Positions 19,944-29,483 of a stretch of DNA of 64,000 nucleotides are shown piece by piece. Location of the stretch: contig CAVTOR010000032.1 of NCBI GenBank assembly GCA_963736235.1, forward strand, positions 109-64,108, in the 5' to 3' direction. Source of the stretch: an uncultured Gammaproteobacteria bacterium (GTDB taxonomy: Bacteria; Pseudomonadota; Gammaproteobacteria; Chromatiales; Chromatiaceae). The notes under the pieces were generated by a model. It was not told the DNA's origin and ran no database searches. It was given only the letters and a program-made list of their open reading frames with translations. The translations under genes and the position numbers were made by a program. How positions within the stretch are numbered: position 1 is the stretch's first letter; each line of letters starts with the position of its first letter.

Positions 19944-20636
19944 ATGCGAATCCTCTGTCTGCAGCATGTTCCTTTCGAAGGCCCCGCCGCGATCGCCGAT
20001 TGGGCTGCCGCCAACGGTCATTCGCTGACCGTTCTGCCGCTCTACGAGAAGGCTGCATTGCCGGGTCAATCGGACTACGATCGGCTCGTCGTCATGGGGG
20101 GTCCGATGGGCGTGCAGGATGTCGACGCGCATCCCTGGCTAAGGGACGAGAAGCGGTTCATTGGAGCCGCCGTCGATAGTGGTAAGGCCGTCATCGGCGT
20201 CTGTCTGGGTGCCCAGCTCATCGCCGAGGCGCTTGGGGCCCGTGTTTATCGCAACCACCGGAAGGAGATCGGCTGGTATCCGATCGCGCTGACCGACGCC
20301 GGTCGGCGCTCGGACGCCCTCGGTTTCCTGCCGGAGCGCCTCGAGGTGTTTCATTGGCATGGGGACACCTTCGACTTGCCGCCGGGTTCGGTCCATCTCG
20401 CCTCCAGCGAGGCCTGTGAAAACCAGGCTTTCCTGCATCGGGGCAGGGTGCTCGGGCTTCAATTCCACCTGGAGTCCACGCCCGGAAGCGTAAGGGATAT
20501 TGTCGACAACTGCGGCGATGAGATCGAGGAGGCGCCTTACGTTCAGAGCGCCGAGCGAATGCTGGCCGCCGGCAACGCTGATTACCAGCGCATCAATCAG
20601 GCCCTGTACGGCGTTCTGGACCGCCTGCCCGCATAG
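19944..20636 (+). CDS. class I glutamine amidotransferase-like protein
   Basis: Motifs 'IGVCLGAQLIAEALG' (nucleophile Cys), 'FHWHGD' and 'GLQFHLE'. Confidence 0.8.
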   Translation: MRILCLQHVPFEGPAAIADWAAANGHSLTVLPLYEKAALPGQSDYDRLVVMGGPMGVQDVDAHPWLRDEKRFIGAAVDSGKAVIGVCLGAQLIAEALGARVYRNHRKEIGWYPIALTDAGRRSDALGFLPERLEVFHWHGDTFDLPPGSVHLASSEACENQAFLHRGRVLGLQFHLESTPGSVRDIVDNCGDEIEEAPYVQSAERMLAAGNADYQRINQALYGVLDRLPA

Positions 20637-20753
20637 CTGCTTCAATGCGTCTGCTTCGTTGTCGAGGTCAACCTCTGGCAGCAGTGGCGGTGACGTACTC
20701 CTTCGGTGACGATTGGAGTCCCGGGCCACCGGCCTGACCGCACTCGCCGAAAC

Positions 20754-20782
20754 GTGACAAACACCTGGGTCGCCAATATACT
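20754..20782 (+). promoter_or_regulatory. sigma70-type promoter for the tRNA-Cys/tRNA-Leu unit
   Basis: -35 GTGACA (20754-20759), 17-nt spacer, -10 TATACT (20777-20782), then a GC-rich discriminator 'gcgccc' 11 nt before the tRNA 5' end. Confidence 0.5.
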
Positions 20783-20793
20783 TTGCGCCCTTA

Positions 20794-20867
20794 GGCTGAG
20801 TGGCAGAGTGGTTATGCAGCGGCCTGCAAAGCCGTGTACCTCGGTTCGATTCCGGGCTCAGCCTCCA
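20794..20867 (+). tRNA. tRNA-Cys (GCA)
   Basis: Folded by hand. Acceptor GGCTGAG/CTCAGCC, anticodon loop CTGCAAA, T-loop GGTTCGATTCC, encoded CCA. Confidence 0.9.
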
Positions 20868-20947
20868 TTTCTTCCTCCGTGGTTCGTCCCGCCTGACCGG
20901 TAAGCGGTATCCGTCATCTTCATGGCGATACGCCGTCCAACACGCCC

Positions 20948-21033
20948 GCCCGGGTGGCGAAATCGGTAGACGCAAGGGACTTAAAATCCCTCGGCCTTTG
21001 GCCATGCGGGTTCGAGTCCCGCCCCGGGCACCA
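20948..21033 (+). tRNA. tRNA-Leu (TAA)
   Basis: Acceptor GCCCGGG/CCCGGGC, anticodon loop CTTAAAA, long variable arm, T-loop GGTTCGAGTCC, encoded CCA. Confidence 0.9.
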
Positions 21034-21410
21034 ACAAGCACAATCAGCCTGGATTTCGAGCCAGAGCGTCCCCTCCCTAGGGGGAATCCTGGGGGAAACT
21101 CCGTTGTCACAACTGACTGCACTTCGGCACAGGCAAGAAAAGCCCGCCGAAGTGGACATGGCCCCCTGAAAAGCGGCAAATCACGACGGCACCCAAGCAG
21201 GGATAGGCGACGCTTTCGTTACCGATCGCTCCGCGCGGGGAGACAACCTTGACAGTGGGCACGTATTTTCCCTCGCGCGCGGTCGCCGGTATCACGCGGT
21301 CCGCTGACATCGAACGGTAATAAATGCGTGCCATCGTTTGCAGGATATTTTCGCCACGAAAAAGGCGCTGTTCTGGCGCCAAACAGTATAGTTTCAGGAG
21401 GACGTGAAGG

Positions 21411-24400
21411 ATGACGATGCAGCAGTTGCAACCGATTGATGCAGAGAGCGAATCGGTCGATACGCCGGGACCCGCGCTCGTTTCCCTGGATGCATCCGAC
21501 GACGCCGCACCGCGCGGCGATTTCAAGTACCCCGGCATCGAGACCGTGATCCACGGCAACGGGGCGGTGGCTCATGTCATGGGGCACGTGTGCGGTGGGG
21601 TCATTGGCTACCCGATCACGCCGTCCACCGAGATCTCGGAGCTGTTCGAGGCCTTTCGCGCGCGGGGTGGCTGCAACGTCTGGGGCAAGCATCCCTTCTT
21701 CTTCGAGCCCGAGGGAGAACATTCGGCCCAGAGCGGCGCCATGGGGGCGGCGTTGACGGGCGGCAAGTACATCTCCAACGCCTCGTCGAGCCAGGGAATC
21801 CTCTACGGGCTGGAATCCCACTACGTGACCGTGGGGAAAAAGATCGGCGGCTTTGTGCTGCAGATCGCCGCGCGCGTCGTCTCCAAGCACTCCCTGAACG
21901 TCATGGCGGGGCACGACGACGTGTACGCGCTGCTGCCCTCGGGTTACACGGTCCTATTTGGCAGCAATCCCCAGGAGGCCGCCGATCTGGCCGCGATTGC
22001 CTACCGGGTCAGCGCTTTGTCGCTGATCCCGGTAGCCAATGCAATGGACGGTTTCGCGACCAGTCACATGCAGAGCGAGGCCCGCCTGCCGGAGCCCGAG
22101 CTGCTGAACGAGTTCCTGGGCGATCCGGCGGGCAGGATCAAGGCGCCGACGGTGGCCCAGGAGATGCTGCACGGCGCCAAGGGTCGGGTCTGCCAGCTGG
22201 AGCAGTACCTGGTCCGGCATCAAGGGGATATCGTGTCCGGCGATCTGGAGGCGCTGCGGGCATTTGTCGACGCCCGCGGTGATGAAATCGAAGGGGACAA
22301 TGCGGGCGCCATGATCCCACAGACCCTGCACTGGATACCCGACGAGCTGCGCGGGCAATGGCGCCGCCAGTGGCTCAATGCCCACGAACGAGGGACCCGC
22401 CAGCTGGTGCCCGCGCTGGTCGACGTCAACAACCCCGGTCTCACCGGTGGGGTGCAGAATCAGCCGGATTTCCAGGCCGGTTCCGTCGATCACAAGACGC
22501 ACTTCGCCAACGAGGTGCCGCGCTTCGTCAGGCAGGCGATGGTGGAATACGGAGCATTCACCGGGCGCTTCTATTCGCCGGTAAGGAGCTTCCTGGCCGA
22601 CGACGCCGATCACGTCATCGTTGGCCTGGGCTCCGTGACGGACGACGCCGAGGCGGTGGCCTCCTACCTGCGGGGACAGGGGAAAAAGGTAGGCGTCGTC
22701 TCCATCAAGCTGTTGCAGCCCTTCCCGGAGGGAGACGTCGTCGCGGCCCTGGCCGGGAAGAAGGCGGTGACCGTGCTGGAGCGCTCGGACGTCACCGCCC
22801 TGACCAACCTGGTCACCCAGGCCCTGTTCAAGGCACGAGAGAATGGCGATCTGATCCGCCACCAGGGAATCCCACCGATCAACAGCCTGCCCAAGATCAG
22901 CACTGGCATCTTCGGTCTGGGCGCCCATGATCTGCAGCCCCGTCACCTGATTGCTGCCTTCAAGAACATGGACAGCGCGCTCAACGTGCCATTCTTCTAC
23001 CTGGGCTCCCAGTTCTTCGCGAAGGACCCGTCGCCACGGGTCGCCGAGCTGCAGGACAGGCTGCGGGCGGCCTACCCGGAGACGGAGTTCATGGCGTTCG
23101 AGACGGAAGAAAACCCGAGCCTCCTGCCGCCCGGAGCCTTCCGGCTGCGGTTCCATTCGGTTGGCGGTTACGGCACCATCGCCACGGGTAAACTCCTCAC
23201 CGACATCTTGGCGGGATTGCTCGGCATGCATTCCAAGTCGGCCCCCAAGTACGGCTCCGAGAAGAGTGGCGCCCCGACGAACTTCTACATTTCCCTGAGC
23301 CCCGAGCCGATCAAGATCACGAACGCCGAGCTCGAGGACGTCGAGATCGTCGTCTCTCCGGATCACAAGGTGTTCAGTCACACCAGCGCCCTGCGCGGCT
23401 TGGCGGAAGATGGCACCCTGATCATGCAGTCGCACCACACCCCGATCGAGGTGTGGAAAGAGTTGCCGGCCCACGCCCGACGGACCATTCGGGACCGAAG
23501 AATCAAGCTCTACATCGTCGATGCCTTCGGCGTGGCCAAGAAGCACGCGCCCGCCCCGGACCTGGAGATCCGGATGATGGGCATCGCCTTCATCGGCGCC
23601 GTTTGCGGCCACGTGGACCGGATCGCCGCGGATGCCCCTATCGATACGCTCTTGGACAAGGTGCGCCGCCAGGTCACCAAGAAGTTCGGGGCCAAGGGCG
23701 ACGCGGTGGTCGAGAGCAACATGGCCGTCATCCGAGAAGGGCTGGAGGCCACGCGGCGGGTCGACTACCGCGATCCGGCCTTCGCCGAGGCGGAGCGGCT
23801 CGCGGCGGTGGATGGCGGCCCCGGCGTGGCGGTCTCCGCCGCCATGGTGAAGTCGGCCTGCGGCGCACCAACCTGCGGGGTCTTCGAGCGGGAGTACTAC
23901 AACGAGGTTTTGGCGGATCGTTTCTCGGACGGCACCATTGCCGAGGCCCCGGTCCTTCCAGGCACGGGGCTCTTCATGCCAGTGGCGAGCGCCGCCTGGA
24001 GAGACAAGGGCCTGTTCCGGCTTACGGTGCCGGAGTACACGGCGCACCTGTGCACCGGCTGCATGGAATGCGCCATGGTCTGTCCGGATGCGGCCATCCC
24101 GAACACGGTGCACGAGATCCACGACCTGCTGCTCGGCGCCATCTCCAGGCTTGACGTGACCGCGCAGCAAAAGACGCTCATGTCGAGCTATGTCTTCCCG
24201 CTGACCAAGACGATTCGCGACGCCTACCGCAGGCTGCCGAGCAAGGACCCCAAGCCCCTGCACGAGATCGCCGCGGAGGCCGTCGCGGACATCGACACGG
24301 AAAACGCATCCCTGCGGCGCGGCTTCGAGAAGATGCTCGAGGGCCTGACCCTCTATCCGGTGGCCAAGACGCGGCCCTTCTTCGATGCCATGGAGGGGAA

Positions 24401-26528
24401 GGTCCCGGGTACCGGCGGCCTCTACTCGGTCAATATCGATCCCTGGAAGTGCAGCGGCTGCCTGGAGTGCGTCGATGTCTGCGGACCCGGGGCGCTCAGC
24501 GCCCGGCGCCAGAGCTCCCAGGTCCTGCGCGAGCTGCAGACCCGTTTCGAGGCCCTGAGCCGCTTGCCGAACACCGCCGCGCGTTTCCATGAGAACGCGG
24601 TCAGCCCCGGCGGCGACACCAAGCGCCTGATCCTGGACCACGACAACTACTATGCCATGACCGGCGGTCACGGTGCCTGCCGAGGCTGTGGCGAGGTGAC
24701 CGCGATTCGCCTGCTCACCGCCGCCAACCGGGCCATCCACCAGAAAAAACGCAGGGACCACATTCGCGAGCTGGAGGGCCTGATCGACGGCCTCAACGAC
24801 AAGATGGGCAGGGTGAAGCACGACGACCACGACCCGGACCGGCTACAGCGCATGCGGGAGACGGTCGAGACCCTGGAGCGGCGCCTGTACCAGTTCGAGG
24901 GGGGACCCACGGGGAACGGCCCGGCGGGCGCGGCCTTCGCCAACGCCACGGGGTGCAGCAGCGTCTATGCCTCGACCTTTCCCTACAACCCCTACACGGA
25001 TCCCTGGGTGAACAGCCTGTTTCAGGATGCCGCACCCCTGGCAAAGGGCATCTTCGAAGGCATCTGCGCCACGGCGGTGGACGACTTCCGCGCCCTGCGC
25101 ACCGCCAAGCTGGACCTGGAGGATCACTACAACCCGGAGATCCACGACCGGTTCTTCCGCTACTTCCACTGGAGCCAGTTCTCCGAGGAGGAGCGAGCCC
25201 TGCTGCCTGCCGTCATCAGCATGGGCGGGGACGGCGCGACCTACGATATCGGCTTCGGCGCCCTGTCGCGGCTGCTGGTCACCGACACCCCGATCAAGGT
25301 GGTGGTGCTCAACACGGGCGCCTACTCCAACACCGGCGGTCAGACGTCCACGGCGAGCTTCACGGCCCAGGACTCGGACTTGACCCGCTTCGGCGTCGCG
25401 CACATCGGCAAGCAGGAGGACCGCAAGGAGCTGGGGCTGATCGCCGCCTTCCACCCGCGGGTATTGGTAATCCAGACCAACGCCGCCCTGCAGGGGCACT
25501 TCATGAAGAACGTCATGGAGTTCCTGACCTACAACGAGTCACCGGCGGTGCTCGACACCTACACCACCTGTCAGTCCGAGCACGGCATCGCGGACGATGC
25601 GGGCAGCCGCCGCGCCCGTCTGGCGGTAGACAGCCGGATGAGCCCGGTCTTCGTGCACGACCCGAGGCGAGGCGACACCCTGGCCGAGCGTTTCACGCTC
25701 GAGGGCAACCCCGACATCGGCAAGGACTGGGTCATGACGACCCTGGAGTACGTGGATTCCCAGGGTAATCCCCAGCTCAAGGAGATCCCCTTCACGCCAG
25801 CGGACTTCGCGGTGGACGAAGGACGCTTCCAGAAGCATTTCCATCCGGTGAACGGTGAAGGGCAACCGGTGCCGGTGCACGAGTACATCGACCTTACCCC
25901 GGAGGCGCGTCACGGCAAGGTTCCCTTCATCTGGTCCGCGGACGAGGACAAGCGGCTGGTCAAGCTGGCGGTCTCCCCGGCCATCATCGACCTGACCGAG
26001 GAGCGGCGCAGGAATTGGCGCATGCTTGAGTATCTGAGCGGGCTGCACGTGGACCGCCTGCAGGCGACCCACCGCCAGGAGCTGGAAACATGGCAGCAGA
26101 GGTGTCAGCAGTCGAACACGGAGCGTGAGCATTCCATCGACTCGATCGCCCGCGGAATGGCCGAGCTCGCCTCTGTGTCCGGCGCCCCGGCCGTTGCGAA
26201 CACCGCCACCGTGCCCCTGGCCAGCATCGCTGCGCAGACCAAGTCGCAGGAGATGCCCTCGATTGCGGATGGAGCCGCAACCCAGCCCTTGGTGGAGATC
26301 GCCGCTGGTGACATGCCAAAGTGCACCAACTGCAAGACCTGCTATCAGGATCTCAGCGAGCTGTTTGAGAAGACCAAGATCATGGTTGCGGGAGAGCCGA
26401 AAGAGGTGAGCCGGGTGATCCCCGGCGTGCTCGACAGAATCGAGCTGACGGCGGACCTGATCCATCGCGCATCCCGGGTGGCCGACGACTGCGATGCGGA
26501 GATCATCCGCTTCCACCGGCCGGCCTAA
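21411..26528 (+). CDS. PFOR-like 2-oxoacid:acceptor oxidoreductase, single 1705-aa polypeptide
   Basis: 'GYPITPSTEISE' (domain I), 'FHSVGGYGTIATGKLL' (gamma domain), 'CTGCMECAMVCPDAAIP' and 'CSGCLECVDVCGPGAL' (2x[4Fe-4S]). TPP domain 'GHGACRGCGE' and 'GGDGATYDIGFGAL...NTGAYSNTGGQ'. Extra C-terminal region containing 'CTNCKTCYQD'. RBS AGGAGG at 21397. Confidence 0.85.
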   Translation: MTMQQLQPIDAESESVDTPGPALVSLDASDDAAPRGDFKYPGIETVIHGNGAVAHVMGHVCGGVIGYPITPSTEISELFEAFRARGGCNVWGKHPFFFEPEGEHSAQSGAMGAALTGGKYISNASSSQGILYGLESHYVTVGKKIGGFVLQIAARVVSKHSLNVMAGHDDVYALLPSGYTVLFGSNPQEAADLAAIAYRVSALSLIPVANAMDGFATSHMQSEARLPEPELLNEFLGDPAGRIKAPTVAQEMLHGAKGRVCQLEQYLVRHQGDIVSGDLEALRAFVDARGDEIEGDNAGAMIPQTLHWIPDELRGQWRRQWLNAHERGTRQLVPALVDVNNPGLTGGVQNQPDFQAGSVDHKTHFANEVPRFVRQAMVEYGAFTGRFYSPVRSFLADDADHVIVGLGSVTDDAEAVASYLRGQGKKVGVVSIKLLQPFPEGDVVAALAGKKAVTVLERSDVTALTNLVTQALFKARENGDLIRHQGIPPINSLPKISTGIFGLGAHDLQPRHLIAAFKNMDSALNVPFFYLGSQFFAKDPSPRVAELQDRLRAAYPETEFMAFETEENPSLLPPGAFRLRFHSVGGYGTIATGKLLTDILAGLLGMHSKSAPKYGSEKSGAPTNFYISLSPEPIKITNAELEDVEIVVSPDHKVFSHTSALRGLAEDGTLIMQSHHTPIEVWKELPAHARRTIRDRRIKLYIVDAFGVAKKHAPAPDLEIRMMGIAFIGAVCGHVDRIAADAPIDTLLDKVRRQVTKKFGAKGDAVVESNMAVIREGLEATRRVDYRDPAFAEAERLAAVDGGPGVAVSAAMVKSACGAPTCGVFEREYYNEVLADRFSDGTIAEAPVLPGTGLFMPVASAAWRDKGLFRLTVPEYTAHLCTGCMECAMVCPDAAIPNTVHEIHDLLLGAISRLDVTAQQKTLMSSYVFPLTKTIRDAYRRLPSKDPKPLHEIAAEAVADIDTENASLRRGFEKMLEGLTLYPVAKTRPFFDAMEGKVPGTGGLYSVNIDPWKCSGCLECVDVCGPGALSARRQSSQVLRELQTRFEALSRLPNTAARFHENAVSPGGDTKRLILDHDNYYAMTGGHGACRGCGEVTAIRLLTAANRAIHQKKRRDHIRELEGLIDGLNDKMGRVKHDDHDPDRLQRMRETVETLERRLYQFEGGPTGNGPAGAAFANATGCSSVYASTFPYNPYTDPWVNSLFQDAAPLAKGIFEGICATAVDDFRALRTAKLDLEDHYNPEIHDRFFRYFHWSQFSEEERALLPAVISMGGDGATYDIGFGALSRLLVTDTPIKVVVLNTGAYSNTGGQTSTASFTAQDSDLTRFGVAHIGKQEDRKELGLIAAFHPRVLVIQTNAALQGHFMKNVMEFLTYNESPAVLDTYTTCQSEHGIADDAGSRRARLAVDSRMSPVFVHDPRRGDTLAERFTLEGNPDIGKDWVMTTLEYVDSQGNPQLKEIPFTPADFAVDEGRFQKHFHPVNGEGQPVPVHEYIDLTPEARHGKVPFIWSADEDKRLVKLAVSPAIIDLTEERRRNWRMLEYLSGLHVDRLQATHRQELETWQQRCQQSNTEREHSIDSIARGMAELASVSGAPAVANTATVPLASIAAQTKSQEMPSIADGAATQPLVEIAAGDMPKCTNCKTCYQDLSELFEKTKIMVAGEPKEVSRVIPGVLDRIELTADLIHRASRVADDCDAEIIRFHRPA

Positions 26529-26576
26529 GGTCTTCCGTGCGAGGTTCGAGCCATCTAAGGAAAACGAGGTAGCGCC

Positions 26577-29483
26577 ATGTCACAACCTTTCGACGAACCG
26601 TCCAAAAGGGTCGGAATTGGGGTGAGCTCGCCTCCGCCCTGTCCCTATGACCAGGGCGACGTGCAGCACTATTATCAGGCGAGTCGCGAGATCGAGGCCA
26701 GCCGGCACCGCATCGAGGACGCCAGGCAGGAGATCCGGGCGCTGGAGCACAGCGAGGCCGTCGAGCTGTTCCAGAAGCAGATCGGCCTGTTGCAAAGGCG
26801 TCTGGTCAATGACCCGCAGTTCTTTCGTCAGGTGTTCATCGCCGAGGGCACCAACGCGATTGCCTGGGAGTTTCAGCAGGAGGAGCTGAGCGGGGCCTTT
26901 ACCAAGATGCTCTGGAATCTGCTGCTCCGCGGGGACGACATGAGCGCCCTGCTGCAGCGGTTCCTCTGGAACATTCCGCTCAAGTTCAAACGCAAGTTCA
27001 TCCGCGCGATCGACGAGCATCTGTCCGACCGCTACCCGATGTTCCGAGGGCTCTCCCAGGGTTGGCCGGGGGAAAACAGCATCCCGCCCTACATCCGCCC
27101 GCCCGAGGAAAGGGCCAAGGACTTCGACCTGGTCAACCAGGGCTACCTCGGATACCTGGGGCTCGGCTACGACTTTCGCGAAGTGGAGCTGCTGGTCTGG
27201 CTGGAGGTGCTGCGCGACAAGCAGTGCGACGACCGCCCCTGCGAGATCGGTCTCCCGGTGATGGACCGCGGGGAGAACAAGGGGGGATGCCCGGTCAAGA
27301 TCCACATCCCCCAGGTCCTCCATCTAATGGGCGAGGGCAAGTTCAAGCAGGCCCTGCAGCTGATCAAGGAATCCAACCCGCTGCCCAACGTCACCGGCCG
27401 CGTGTGCCCGCAGGAGATCCAGTGTCAGGGGGTCTGCACCCACAACGCGCGCCCGATCGAGATCGGGCAGTTGGAGTGGTACCTGCCCCAGAGCGAGAAG
27501 GTCCTCAATCCGGAGGCGACCTTCGTGCTCCAGGACTCGGTCAACCCTTGGGCCAAGGCGGACAGGCCGCCCATCGCCATCGTCGGCTCCGGCCCCGCGG
27601 GCCTGATCAACGCCTATCTGCTTGCGAAGGAGGGCTATCCGGTCACCGTGTTCGAGGCATTTCACGCGCTTGGCGGCGTTTTGCGTTACGGCATTCCCGA
27701 ATTTCGCCTGCCCAACGAGCTGATCGACGACGTGGTGGCGAAGATCACCAGGATGGGCGGAAAGTTCGTGACCAACTTCATCGTCGGCAAGACCGCCACG
27801 CTCGAGGCCCTGAAGCGAGCCGGATTCTGGAAGATCTTCATCGGCACCGGCGCCGGGCTGCCGCGGTTCATGAACGTGCCGGGCGAGCACCTGCTCGGCG
27901 TCCTGTCGGCGAACGAGTTCCTCACCCGCGTCAACCTGATGCAGGGCCACAAGGAGGGTTACGAGACGCCGCTGCCGGAGACCCGTGACAAGGAGGTGAT
28001 CGTCATCGGCGGTGGCAATACCGCGATGGACGCGGCGCGCACGGCCCGGCGTCTTGGGGGCAAGGTGACCATCGTCTACCGTCGCACCCAGAACGAGATG
28101 CCGGTCCGGGTGGAAGAGCTGCACCATGCCCTGGAGGAGGGCATCCAGCTCAAGGCGCTCCGGGCGCCGCGGGAGTTCATCGGCAGCGACAAGACTCACT
28201 TCGTCACCCACGCCGTGCTGGACATCATGGAGCTGGGTGAGCCAGACGTATCCGGAAGGCGCAGTCCGCTGGTCACCGGCGAGACCGAGGAGATGCGGGT
28301 CGACCTGGTCATCATGGCGCTCGGCAATGCCTCGAACCCCATAGTCAAGGACGCCGAGCCGGACCTCAAGACCAGCAAGTGGGGCACCATCGAGATTCGC
28401 CCTGGCACCCACGAGACCTCGGTGGACGGCGTCTACACGGGCGGCGACGCCAACCGCGGCGGCTCGACGGCGATCAAGGCCGCCGGCGACGGGCAGGCTG
28501 CCGCCCGTGAGATCGCGGGCGAGATCCCCTTCTCCCTGAGCGAGATCAAATCCCTGGTCGCCAGCGCCGAGCGTTACACCAAGCTCGGCCAGGCAACCCA
28601 GACGATCGTCGAGAAGATCGATCTGGCCGAGGGCATCGTCGAGTTCGTGGTCCGGTCGCCGCTGGTCGCCAAGGCGGCGAAAGCCGGTCAGTTCGTGAGG
28701 GTCCTCGCCTGGGAGCAAGGCGAGTTGATCCCGCTGACCCTGGCCGACTGGGACGCCGAGGCCGGCACCATCGACCTGGTCATCCAAGGTCTCGGCAGCA
28801 GCTCGATGATGATGAACCGGATGGTCGTGGGCGACGCCTTCGCCGGCATCGCCGGCCCGCTGGGCCTGCCGAGCCAGCTGCACCGATACGAGAACGGCGA
28901 GACCGTTGTCTTCACCGCCGGCGGCGTCGGCCTGCCGCCCGTGTACCCGATCATGCGCGAGCACCTGCGCATGGGTAATCACGTGACCCTGATCGCTGGC
29001 TTCCGCACCGACAAGCTCAAGTTCTGGACCGGCGAGGGTGAACGCATCGGGCTGCTGCAGGCCGAGTATCCGGAACTGCTGGACGTGGTCTACACCAGCA
29101 ACGACGGCAGCTTCGGCGTCGAGGGTTTCGTTACCGGTCCTCTGGGGGAGATGCTCGAACAGGCGAACTCCGGTGCCGGTCGCGAGCTCGGGGAGGTCGT
29201 GACCATCGGGCCGCCGCTGATGATGCGCGCCGTCAGCGACCTCACCAAGGGCTACGGGGTGCGCACCGTAGCCAGCCTCAACTCCATCATGGTGGACGCC
29301 ACCGGCATGTGCGGCGCCTGCATGGTGCCGGTGATGCAGGAGGGGCGCTTGGTGCGCAAGCACGCCTGCATCGACGGTCCCGAGATCGACTCCCACATCA
29401 TCGACTGGGACAAGTTCCTGCCCCGGTTCCATCAGTTCAAGGCGCAGGAGGACCGCAACCGCCAGCGGCATGGATTAAGGTGA
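26577..29483 (+). CDS. GltD/NfnB-like NAD(P)H flavoprotein fused to a PyrK/NfnA-like FAD/[2Fe-2S] module, with a ~165-aa N-terminal extension of unknown type
   Basis: 'GRVCPQEIQCQGVC' (Fe-S), 'IAIVGSGPAGL' and 'VIVIGGGNTAMDAA' (two dinucleotide folds). Then 'GQFVRVLAW..IPLTLAD', 'VFTAGGVGLPPVYPI' and a terminal Cys cluster 'GMCGACMV...C'. Confidence 0.8.
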   Translation: MSQPFDEPSKRVGIGVSSPPPCPYDQGDVQHYYQASREIEASRHRIEDARQEIRALEHSEAVELFQKQIGLLQRRLVNDPQFFRQVFIAEGTNAIAWEFQQEELSGAFTKMLWNLLLRGDDMSALLQRFLWNIPLKFKRKFIRAIDEHLSDRYPMFRGLSQGWPGENSIPPYIRPPEERAKDFDLVNQGYLGYLGLGYDFREVELLVWLEVLRDKQCDDRPCEIGLPVMDRGENKGGCPVKIHIPQVLHLMGEGKFKQALQLIKESNPLPNVTGRVCPQEIQCQGVCTHNARPIEIGQLEWYLPQSEKVLNPEATFVLQDSVNPWAKADRPPIAIVGSGPAGLINAYLLAKEGYPVTVFEAFHALGGVLRYGIPEFRLPNELIDDVVAKITRMGGKFVTNFIVGKTATLEALKRAGFWKIFIGTGAGLPRFMNVPGEHLLGVLSANEFLTRVNLMQGHKEGYETPLPETRDKEVIVIGGGNTAMDAARTARRLGGKVTIVYRRTQNEMPVRVEELHHALEEGIQLKALRAPREFIGSDKTHFVTHAVLDIMELGEPDVSGRRSPLVTGETEEMRVDLVIMALGNASNPIVKDAEPDLKTSKWGTIEIRPGTHETSVDGVYTGGDANRGGSTAIKAAGDGQAAAREIAGEIPFSLSEIKSLVASAERYTKLGQATQTIVEKIDLAEGIVEFVVRSPLVAKAAKAGQFVRVLAWEQGELIPLTLADWDAEAGTIDLVIQGLGSSSMMMNRMVVGDAFAGIAGPLGLPSQLHRYENGETVVFTAGGVGLPPVYPIMREHLRMGNHVTLIAGFRTDKLKFWTGEGERIGLLQAEYPELLDVVYTSNDGSFGVEGFVTGPLGEMLEQANSGAGRELGEVVTIGPPLMMRAVSDLTKGYGVRTVASLNSIMVDATGMCGACMVPVMQEGRLVRKHACIDGPEIDSHIIDWDKFLPRFHQFKAQEDRNRQRHGLR

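Follow-up and report, generated by a model that had tools for sequence, protein, structure and literature searches.

The window analysed here is a 64,000-nucleotide (nt) stretch of contig CAVTOR010000032.1, from an uncultured gammaproteobacterium of the family Chromatiaceae, and the subject of this report is a pair of adjacent genes on its forward strand: one for a long-form member of the pyruvate:ferredoxin oxidoreductase (PFOR) family (P0001) and one for a flavoprotein in which the two halves of an Nfn enzyme are fused (P0002). Both open reading frames (ORFs) are intact, and their positions, their lengths of 1705 and 968 amino acids (aa) and the 48-nt gap between them are as given in the initial annotation of the locus. 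An AGGAGG Shine-Dalgarno sequence lies about 11 nt 5' of the P0001 ATG, and a search for a terminator-like hairpin between the two genes found none. The pair is laid out as follows:

21411..26528, + strand: gene for the long-form PFOR-family 2-oxoacid oxidoreductase, P0001 (Pfam, NCBIfam and alignments to solved PFORs)
26529..26576, + strand: spacer of 48 nt, with a GAGG Shine-Dalgarno sequence 7 nt before the P0002 ATG
26577..29483, + strand: gene for the fused NfnB-NfnA ('Pattern C' Nfn) flavoprotein, P0002 (NCBIfam NF009415 and matches to the solved NfnI-L and NfnI-S)

The solved PFORs 6CIN (E = 5e-78), 1B0P and 7PLM align with P0001 over all domains, and the domain order I-II-III-IV-V-VI is PFOR-like. 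Pfam recognises POR_N at residues 64-237, PFOR_II at 399-463, POR at 585-779, 4Fe-4S motifs and TPP_enzyme_C at 1267-1316. Domain I carries YPITPST at residue 67 and AAR at residue 153, with Arg155; the Thr of the first motif and the Arg of the second align with conserved 6CIN residues, at positions which we take to be the carboxylate contacts of D. africanus PFOR. The thiamine pyrophosphate (TPP) motif GDG...NTGAYSNTGGQ occupies 1273-1311 (GDGATYD at 1273, NTGAYSNTGGQ at 1301). Two CxxCxxCxxxC motifs are found in domain V, at 881-891 and 1014-1024, and the Cys residues of the proximal cluster lie in domain VI at 1090 and 1093 (GACRGCGE at 1088), 1182 (ATGCSS at 1179) and 1387 (TTCQSE at 1385). 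The PFOR hallmarks that the initial annotation ascribed to the protein are thereby borne out, and the protein has the make-up of a single-chain, NifJ-type PFOR: domains I, II, III and VI with the TPP motif, the two Cys motifs of domain V and the proximal-cluster Cys of domain VI. The parts of P0001 and their positions in the window are:

21546..22079, + strand: domain I, TPP/pyruvate site, aligning to 6CIN residues 5-180
22068..22427, + strand: family-specific insertion after domain I, aa 220-339, absent from the PFOR of about 1170 aa in the same genome
23136..23750, + strand: domain III, coenzyme A (CoA)-binding, gamma-like, aa 576-780 (Pfam POR 585-779 and the 6CIN alignment)
24027..24491, + strand: domain V, the ferredoxin domain with 2x[4Fe-4S], interrupted by some 76 inserted aa
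24675..25700, + strand: domain VI, TPP-binding, beta-like, with the proximal-cluster Cys and a coiled insertion at aa 1104-1173
25701..26177, + strand: C-terminal beta/alpha domain (aa 1431-1542) and long helix (aa 1545-1589), from an AlphaFold2 model; no Pfam family
26187..26291, + strand: Ala/Pro/Ser-rich, variable, disordered tether, aa 1593-1627 (model confidence below 50; 31 homologues)
26292..26528, + strand: tethered single-[4Fe-4S] ferredoxin domain, aa 1628-1705 (invariant Cys and fold matches)

About 500 residues of P0001 lie beyond the PFOR domains, as inserts and as a C-terminal addition. They were mapped by alignment to the genome's own PFOR of about 1170 aa, whose frame is cut at the N-terminus, and the variable stretch of about 40 residues that opens P0001 is therefore placed approximately. 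The insertion after domain I, already remarked upon in the initial annotation, covers aa 220-293 and 325-339 and retains 0.66-0.80 identity to the query inside the long family. The C-terminal extension is shorter than the 330 or so residues first proposed, at about 200-250 aa, and two inserts had been overlooked: some 76 aa at 905-1000, between the domain V Cys motifs, and some 64 aa at 1104-1173 in domain VI, which are predicted to be coiled. Pfam searches with each insertion and with the beta/alpha domain of the tail gave nothing above noise.

The tail was aligned across 31 sequences from Gamma-, Beta- and Alphaproteobacteria, Eremiobacterota-type metagenome-assembled genomes (MAGs) and Gemmatimonas. 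It comprises a conserved region (1431-1590), an Ala/Pro/Ser-rich segment at about 1593-1627 that varies in both length and sequence, and a terminal domain of 65 residues, with C1638, C1641, C1644 and C1694 (CxxCxxC...C) invariant in all 31 tails. The AlphaFold model of the tail (m99888ad75035; mean predicted local distance difference test score, pLDDT, 81) consists of a beta/alpha domain at 1431-1542 (pLDDT about 95), a single long helix at 1545-1589, a disordered stretch at 1593-1623 (pLDDT below 50) and a small alpha/beta domain at 1628-1701. The beta/alpha domain is found also in other long or split 2-oxoacid:ferredoxin oxidoreductases (OFORs), including two paralogues in the host genome.

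In an exhaustive VIA search, the small terminal domain matched, over its full extent, Hydrogenobacter thermophilus Fd1 (7M1N; Z 8.1, root-mean-square deviation 2.5 Å over 66 aa), the ferredoxin of Rhodopseudomonas palustris HaA2 (4OV1; Z 8.0), M. tuberculosis Fdx (Z 6.6) and the [4Fe-4S] ferredoxin of B. thermoproteolyticus (Z 6.3), against a background of unrelated rows at Z of about 4.5-5.4. Foldseek, run with a multi-domain query, placed the same single-cluster ferredoxins on top (probability 1.00, E about 0.02), and the domain covers the full Pfam Fer4_15 profile with 17.6 bits, just short of the threshold of 22.4. P0001 ends, in other words, in a single-cluster [4Fe-4S] ferredoxin with CxxCxxC...C ligands and a beta-alpha-beta fold of about 65 aa. 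Given the fold matches, the near-threshold Fer4_15 score and the invariant Cys, 'CTNCKTCYQD' is identified as the first three ligands of this tethered ferredoxin. The initial annotation had rightly singled out the motif within the extension but had missed what it belongs to, which is the key to the mechanism considered below.

P0002 falls into three parts:

26577..27071, + strand: N-terminal helical domain, fold without a match, aa 1-165, conserved core 60-165
27072..28517, + strand: NfnB/GltD-like part with a 2x[4Fe-4S] helical domain, a flavin adenine dinucleotide (FAD) site and an NADPH site, aa 166-647
28584..29483, + strand: NfnA/PyrK-like part with FAD and NAD domains and a [2Fe-2S] site (D907, C912, C915, C931)

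The protein scores 1755.6 bits (cut-off 1519) on NCBIfam NF009415 over residues 40-967, covering profile positions 16-943 of 944; this family (PRK12779) bears the name putative bifunctional glutamate synthase subunit beta/2-polyprenylphenol hydroxylase, which is a placeholder. Among solved structures, P. furiosus NfnI-L (5JCA_L, E = 4e-105) and T. maritima NfnB (4YLF_B) correspond to residues 236-646 and NfnI-S (5JCA_S, E = 3e-63) to residues 677-957, in agreement with the fusion of GltD/NfnB-like and PyrK/NfnA-like modules described at the outset. The first of these parts extends over about 165-647 and the second over 670-968; the beginning of the NfnB-like part near residue 165 is set by the segment 'PPYIRPPEERAKDF', which aligns with the N-terminus of NfnII-L, and by the superposition of 4YLF_B on model residues 161-312. 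P0002 is one of the 'Pattern C' Nfn homologues (B-then-A, with about 200 extra residues) that Liang, Huang and Wang (2019, PMC6405883) listed, as uncharacterised, in Actinobacteria, Alphaproteobacteria and Gammaproteobacteria. AadN of R. palustris (PMC9973337) was considered as a characterised relative and rejected, since its fusion follows Pattern B and its genes are set in a different context.

Over 29 members of the P0002 family, drawn from three phyla, the mean column identity is 77%. Invariant among them are D214, C217, C222, C238, C277, C283, C287, E300, the YRR motif at 501-503 that P0002 retains at its NADPH site, and D907-x4-C912-x2-C915...C931, which reads as a putative NfnA-type [2Fe-2S] site of one Asp and three Cys. 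E300 is the HMMER-aligned counterpart of Glu126 of P. furiosus NfnL, the site-differentiated ligand of the proximal [4Fe-4S] cluster, mutation of which uncouples the two branches of that enzyme. Both sets of Nfn components are present, namely FAD/NADPH Rossmann domains with a two-[4Fe-4S] domain whose proximal cluster is Glu-ligated, and FAD/NAD domains with a [2Fe-2S] site of Asp and three Cys. They occur neither as two subunits nor as an A-then-B fusion; P0002 is a single chain in the order B-then-A with an additional N-domain. At the distal cluster, the invariant D214, C217 and C222 are followed by an insertion of 15-19 residues before C238. The candidate Cys ligands are C217, C222 and C287 (or C238), HMMER having left the N-terminal ligand region of the solved NfnB unaligned, and by its spacing Asp214 probably replaces the first Cys.

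The N-terminal region of about 165 aa, initially described as of no known type, has remained so: the Pfam scan found no family for it, and no fold match was obtained (best VIA Z 5.0, on helical segments of a model with an overall pLDDT of 57). Its core at 60-165 is rich in aromatic and basic residues that are invariant across phyla, and the domain is helical in the model, which is poor overall and reaches a pLDDT of about 80-88 for aa 90-155. For residues 56-168 (26742-27080), an Atlas feature search gave an unconfirmed, sub-threshold lead (0.85) to small clusters with 'RP005_N' (PF27156, Pfam 38.1), a family under which the N-domain may perhaps already be listed.

Linkage of the two genes was assessed in both directions. 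A scan with P0002 of genomes sampled at one per species gave 346 relatives; their 80 best loci were retrieved and searched with P0001 by tblastn. All 77 informative loci have a long PFOR immediately upstream in the same orientation, at gaps of -96 to +447 nt, and the contigs of the other three end less than 330 nt upstream of the P0002 relative. The stop and start codons overlap by 4 nt (ATGA) in about 25 loci, mostly of Alpha- and Betaproteobacteria. The pairwise distances of the P0001 and P0002 relatives correlate with r = 0.91 over 58 loci, a figure that kinship inflates. In the reverse test, in which metagenome contigs were searched with the tail alignment, 80 loci were obtained, five of them uninformative, and the partner lies directly downstream of the tailed PFOR in 56 of the remaining 75. 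A failure of the two genes to be co-conserved had been named in the initial annotation as a finding that would count against the pair; judged by these arrangements, the long PFOR and fusion genes do travel together. The 5-kb flanks of 53 loci were examined for a further conserved gene, such as one for a separate ferredoxin, a regulator or a maturation factor, and none was found beyond genus-level synteny; the sole neighbour cluster to recur across taxa was a generic ABC ATPase. On one Thiosymbion contig (L015) the fusion is present and no PFOR 3' end occurs in the 319 nt upstream. Together with a symbiont-like lineage whose tailed PFORs have no partner nearby (see below), this contig raises the possibility that the genes came apart in worm-symbiont-like bacteria, in which case a natural test of the importance of adjacency would be at hand. 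Adjacency of the two genes is the rule and not an absolute.

Three phyla contribute linked loci, with representatives in the alpha, beta and gamma groups of Pseudomonadota, in Eremiobacterota-type MAGs and in Gemmatimonas. Among the hosts are Chromatiaceae, Ectothiorhodospiraceae, Thiosymbion, many Rhodopseudomonas species, Blastochloris, Rhodoplanes, Rhodomicrobium, Rhodopila and Roseiarcus, together with Rhodoferax, Propionivibrio, Sulfuritalea, Paludibacterium, Vulcanimicrobiaceae, 'Candidatus Velthaea' and Gemmatimonas. Even sampling of the host's class turned up the module in one of 299 genomes, and a search of the one other genome sampled from the host's family did not detect it. This rarity, combined with low divergence across phyla, suggests that the module has spread horizontally among distant lineages. 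Going by record titles (loci L005-L084), a large share of the named hosts, uncorrected for background frequency, falls into groups of anoxygenic phototrophs (Rhodopseudomonas, Rhodoplanes, Blastochloris, Rhodomicrobium, Rhodopila, Roseiarcus, Rhodoferax, Chromatiaceae, Ectothiorhodospiraceae and Gemmatimonas).

PFOR conveys electrons from its TPP site to ferredoxin by way of three clusters. NfnAB takes or gives ferredoxin electrons at the distal cluster of NfnB and bifurcates at the NfnB FAD, between the distal-cluster branch and the branch formed by the [2Fe-2S] cluster, FAD and NAD+ site of NfnA. If the two proteins described here work in sequence, the long PFOR would oxidise a 2-oxoacid, most likely pyruvate, with CoA at its TPP site, and electrons would move through its three [4Fe-4S] clusters to a fourth in the C-terminal ferredoxin, which is borne on a helix of 45 residues and a tether of about 35. 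The captive ferredoxin would then dock on the distal [4Fe-4S] cluster of the NfnB-like half, whose FAD would receive the electrons and reduce NADP+, while the NfnA-like half, with its 2Fe-2S, FAD and NAD sites, would supply or remove the second electron in the manner of Nfn. The net reaction would be pyruvate + CoA + NADH + 2 NADP+ ↔ acetyl-CoA + CO2 + NAD+ + 2 NADPH. At textbook in-vivo potentials of about -375 mV for NADPH, -280 mV for NADH and -500 mV for the pyruvate couple, this reaction would lie near equilibrium and could proceed in either direction; the module could thus run in reverse as an NADPH-driven pyruvate synthase.

Direct coupling of the pair to pyridine nucleotides, possibly with bifurcation, as already proposed in the initial annotation, is the best-supported reading that we infer from these data. 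What the data themselves establish is the domain make-up of the two proteins, their cofactor ligands, the fold of the tethered ferredoxin, the linkage of the genes and their parallel divergence; association of the proteins in a complex, the substrate, the stoichiometry and the direction of the reaction are deduced from these. The tethered ferredoxin, the conserved Nfn ligands, the gene linkage, the N-domain and the PFOR-specific inserts together argue for a dedicated complex, and we consider it probable, with some reserve, that P0001 and P0002 form one pyruvate:NAD(P) electron-transfer unit, independent of free ferredoxin, in which a captive ferredoxin shuttles between the distal cluster of the PFOR and that of the Nfn part. 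That the pair truly bifurcates electrons is a serious prospect, with chances that we place somewhat short of even. The most specific form of the proposal, a self-contained flavin-based bifurcating pyruvate synthase/oxidoreductase with captive ferredoxin that catalyses 2 NADPH + NAD+ + acetyl-CoA + CO2 ↔ pyruvate + CoA + 2 NADP+ + NADH, is put forward tentatively and is, on balance, rather unlikely. A role of the pair in carbon fixation is plausible.

Several observations weigh against a dedicated pyruvate-coupled unit. P0001 reaches only 378.3 bits, in five stretches, on the NifJ equivalog TIGR02176, where the cut-off is 911, and it nowhere contains EKR, which PMC13768988 gives as the signature of linker domain IV (WRDKG aligned with YEKRG of 6CIN); on both counts pyruvate specificity is not assured. 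The 19 of 75 metagenome loci that have no Nfn partner within 4 kb are closely related and share one layout. The lineage to which they and L169-L171 (contigs Ga0209680_1000009, Ga0056129_1000038 and ERZ27247815) belong encodes a full-length tailed PFOR of 1711 aa, about 74% identical to P0001, with rpiA upstream, and one of its loci has no Nfn fusion within 10 kb on either side. It follows that the tail need not serve an Nfn partner only, or that adjacency is dispensable. The host also possesses a canonical PFOR and several other OFOR-flavoprotein sets, which leaves the specific role of the pair less defined. On the supporting side, two studies of sediment metatranscriptomes provide RNA-library contigs that are 99-100% identical to parts of the two genes, with 0-1 mismatches; one of these spans 26319-26573 without a mismatch, so that it takes in the PFOR stop codon and ends 4 nt before the P0002 start. 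No RNA-library contig bridges the junction of the two genes, and the uncovered bins carry no meaning. The contigs are consistent with expression of both genes; DNA carry-over is possible, and they do not amount to proof of transcription. The papers found contain neither biochemical nor structural evidence for the complex, its substrate or bifurcation, and literature searches for an assay of the two proteins, whether from R. palustris or from another organism, came up empty.

The alternative that fares best is a non-bifurcating pyruvate:NADP+ oxidoreductase, a functional analogue of the enzyme of that name (PNO) in Euglena, in which electrons of the tethered ferredoxin reduce NADP+ at the NfnB-like FAD and the NfnA-like half is only an alternative exit to NAD+ or a structural remnant. 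Some Nfn homologues indeed do not bifurcate (reviewed in PMC6405883 and PMC9973337), and the putative distal ligands of P0002 appear to depart from the usual four Cys, given the invariant Asp214 and the 15-19 residues inserted before Cys238. Against this, the cofactor ligands of the NfnA-like half are all invariant across phyla, and so are E300 and D907, site-differentiated ligands that are tied to coupling fidelity in NfnSL; such invariance, at a mean column identity of 77%, argues for a working two-branch core under strong selection, and a non-bifurcating enzyme is on the whole unlikely.

The same machine might instead act on another 2-oxoacid, such as 2-oxoglutarate, 2-oxobutyrate or a branched or aromatic oxoacid. 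The shortfall on the pyruvate-specific equivalog (378 against 911 bits) fits this suggestion, as do the large insertions in the P0001 domains and the presence of a canonical PFOR in the host. It is opposed by the nearest solved and curated relatives, all of which are PFORs, by the alignment of the YPITPST Thr and the AAR Arg with conserved 6CIN residues, and by a domain order of I-II-III-IV-V-VI instead of the III-I-II of the KorA-type 2-oxoglutarate:ferredoxin oxidoreductases (PMC13768988), and we regard a different substrate as distinctly unlikely. A little more improbable still is that two independent enzymes share one operon, the tailed PFOR feeding the ferredoxin pool or other acceptors and the fusion acting on its own as an Nfn transhydrogenase to keep the pools of ferredoxin, NADH and NADPH in balance. 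The lineage that keeps a tailed PFOR with no adjacent partner and the Thiosymbion fusion with no PFOR end in its 319 upstream nt favour such independence; the near-absolute synteny elsewhere, with a Pattern C fusion beside a long PFOR at all 77 informative genome loci, the many translationally coupled pairs, the co-divergence and the family-specific N-domain of the partner all speak against it. Exchange of electrons between the NfnA-like half and quinone or quinol, in a bifurcating ferredoxin/NAD(P)/quinone complex as postulated for propionibacteria (PMC7650540), is highly improbable, since the C-terminal half matches soluble NfnS/PyrK-type FAD/NAD/2Fe-2S proteins (5JCA_S, E = 3e-63) and Pfam and NCBIfam scans of either protein turned up no membrane or quinone-binding family.

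The preferred reading, a dedicated unit with a captive ferredoxin, bears on a general problem. PFOR chemistry needs electrons at about -500 mV, and how these are supplied or disposed of outside strict anaerobes is an open question, which the PFOR review PMC13768988 stresses in regard to direction and reversibility. Were a PFOR permanently connected to an Nfn core by a ferredoxin of its own, NADPH and NADH would be linked directly to the pyruvate/acetyl-CoA node, and NADPH could become a workable reductant for reductive carboxylation. If the pair bifurcates, bacteria with no strongly reducing ferredoxin pool, be they facultative, microaerobic or phototrophic, could carboxylate acetyl-CoA, or dump excess reductant into CO2, by means of pyridine nucleotides only. 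The pair would in that case also represent a class of bifurcating enzymes in which the substrate enzyme carries the low-potential acceptor as one of its own domains, on a tether, and the 'Pattern C' Nfn homologues would gain their first assigned role. Cultured and tractable carriers exist in R. palustris, Rhodoplanes, Blastochloris and Paludibacterium, which makes the hypothesis directly testable.

Upstream of the pair lie genes for an SSF symporter, a NUDIX protein and a GATase, and downstream genes for FG-GAP/Calx-beta exoproteins; as these are unrelated on both sides, the pair appears to form a two-gene unit on its own. Between the GATase gene and the PFOR start, window positions 20139-21252 hold a 346-aa ORF on the minus strand and a 150-aa ORF on the plus strand, both with no Pfam family, and may be non-coding DNA upstream of the operon. 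One further feature is a weak lead only, as promoter-like sites in this region are no more numerous than in shuffled sequence:

20754..20782, + strand: promoter-like site upstream of the pair, GTGACA-17-TATACT, 10 of 12 matches

The host genome (4.4 Mb, 90% complete) encodes the RuBisCO large subunit and DsrA, in keeping with the autotroph assumed in the initial annotation, and in this 90% of the genome neither Photo_RC nor nifH was found above cut-off. From RuBisCO, DsrA and the lack of Photo_RC, the host is classed, on gene content, as a non-phototrophic sulfur-oxidising autotroph. A gene for aceE is present (G000:C17:238419-241060) but split over three frames, and a long PFOR paralogue with 34-48% identity to P0001 (G000:C30:176503-181528) extends over at least four frames, with no ferredoxin tail detected and no Nfn partner. 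Both point to indel errors of the assembly and are not to be read as pseudogenes unless reads support it. A further OFOR cluster, on the minus strand (L085, G000:C5:468031-480768), has a gamma-alpha fusion of 804 aa (POR, POR_N, PFOR_II) and, behind it, a 917-aa protein in which a domain VI-like part is joined to the beta/alpha tail domain (27% identical to P0001 1431-1652) and, at the C-terminus, to a single-cluster ferredoxin of the Fer4_13 family; beyond these lie a 1587-aa PFOR-like protein and a 452-aa flavin mononucleotide (FMN) protein of RnfC/Nuo51 type. This may be another design of an OFOR with captive ferredoxin plus NADH module, and its split pair is similar to the alpha'beta' arrangement described for the PFOR of M. 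marinus.

Among known systems, the closest to P0001 is the homodimeric single-chain PFOR (M. thermoacetica 6CIN, D. africanus 1B0P; NifJ/YdbK type, TIGR02176), with which it shares the domain order, the TPP motif, the three [4Fe-4S] sites and the YPITP and Arg substrate contacts. It differs in being some 500 residues longer, with inserts after domain I, in V and in VI, in lacking EKR, in its added beta/alpha domain, helix, tether and fourth-cluster ferredoxin, and in scoring 378 against 911 bits. With Nfn (NfnAB/NfnSL), P0002 has in common both halves, the Glu-ligated proximal 4Fe-4S cluster, the Asp-ligated 2Fe-2S cluster and the 'YRR' NADPH site, whereas it is one polypeptide in the order B-then-A, carries an insertion and an extra N-domain of some 165 conserved aa, probably has Asp214 at its distal cluster, and is encoded behind a PFOR in all informative genome loci.

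In the PNO of Euglena and Cryptosporidium, a PFOR core is fused in one chain to an FMN/FAD module of the cytochrome P450 reductase type. The likeness is functional, a PFOR core delivering electrons to NADP+ with no need of free ferredoxin, but the partner of P0001 is a separate Nfn-type protein that would be reached via the tethered ferredoxin, and neither a flavodoxin nor a cytochrome P450 reductase domain was found by Pfam or NCBIfam in P0001 or P0002. The 2-oxoglutarate:NADP+ oxidoreductase of Azoarcus evansii consists of a two-subunit KorAB core and an FAD subunit. It resembles the pair as an OFOR coupled to NADP+ by a dedicated flavoprotein, while its KorAB core has another domain order and another substrate than P0001. 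Both analogies had been drawn in the initial annotation; they hold for function and not for homology of the flavoprotein partner, which belongs to a different family. A layout closer than that of P0001/P0002 to the Azoarcus type, KorAB plus flavoprotein, is found elsewhere in the host genome (L086, G000:C4:31724-36236), where OFOR alpha, beta and gamma-like genes lie beside one for a GltD/NfnB-like flavoprotein of 540 aa, with a ferredoxin domain of the 2x[4Fe-4S] kind at its end.

The nearest published precedent is the PFOR of Propionibacterium (nifJ1), which is co-transcribed and co-regulated with flanking gltD-like and dihydroorotate dehydrogenase-like genes; knockout of nifJ1 caused a severe growth defect, and the authors postulated a complex and urged further study (McCubbin et al. 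2020, PMC7650540). Gene neighbourhood and idea are the same as for P0001/P0002, but that proposal involves quinol, concerns Actinobacteria and was not biochemically tested, whereas the present pair, separated by 48 nt, belongs to a sulfur-oxidising gammaproteobacterium. A form of 1700 aa and a tethered ferredoxin go unmentioned in a 2026 review of characterised PFORs (PMC13768988). The module is real, conserved and uncharacterised; the fusion already has an NCBI model and a Pattern C listing (PMC6405883), the parts are those of known families (PFOR, single-cluster ferredoxin and Nfn), and the idea of pairing them had been published for the propionibacteria (PMC7650540).

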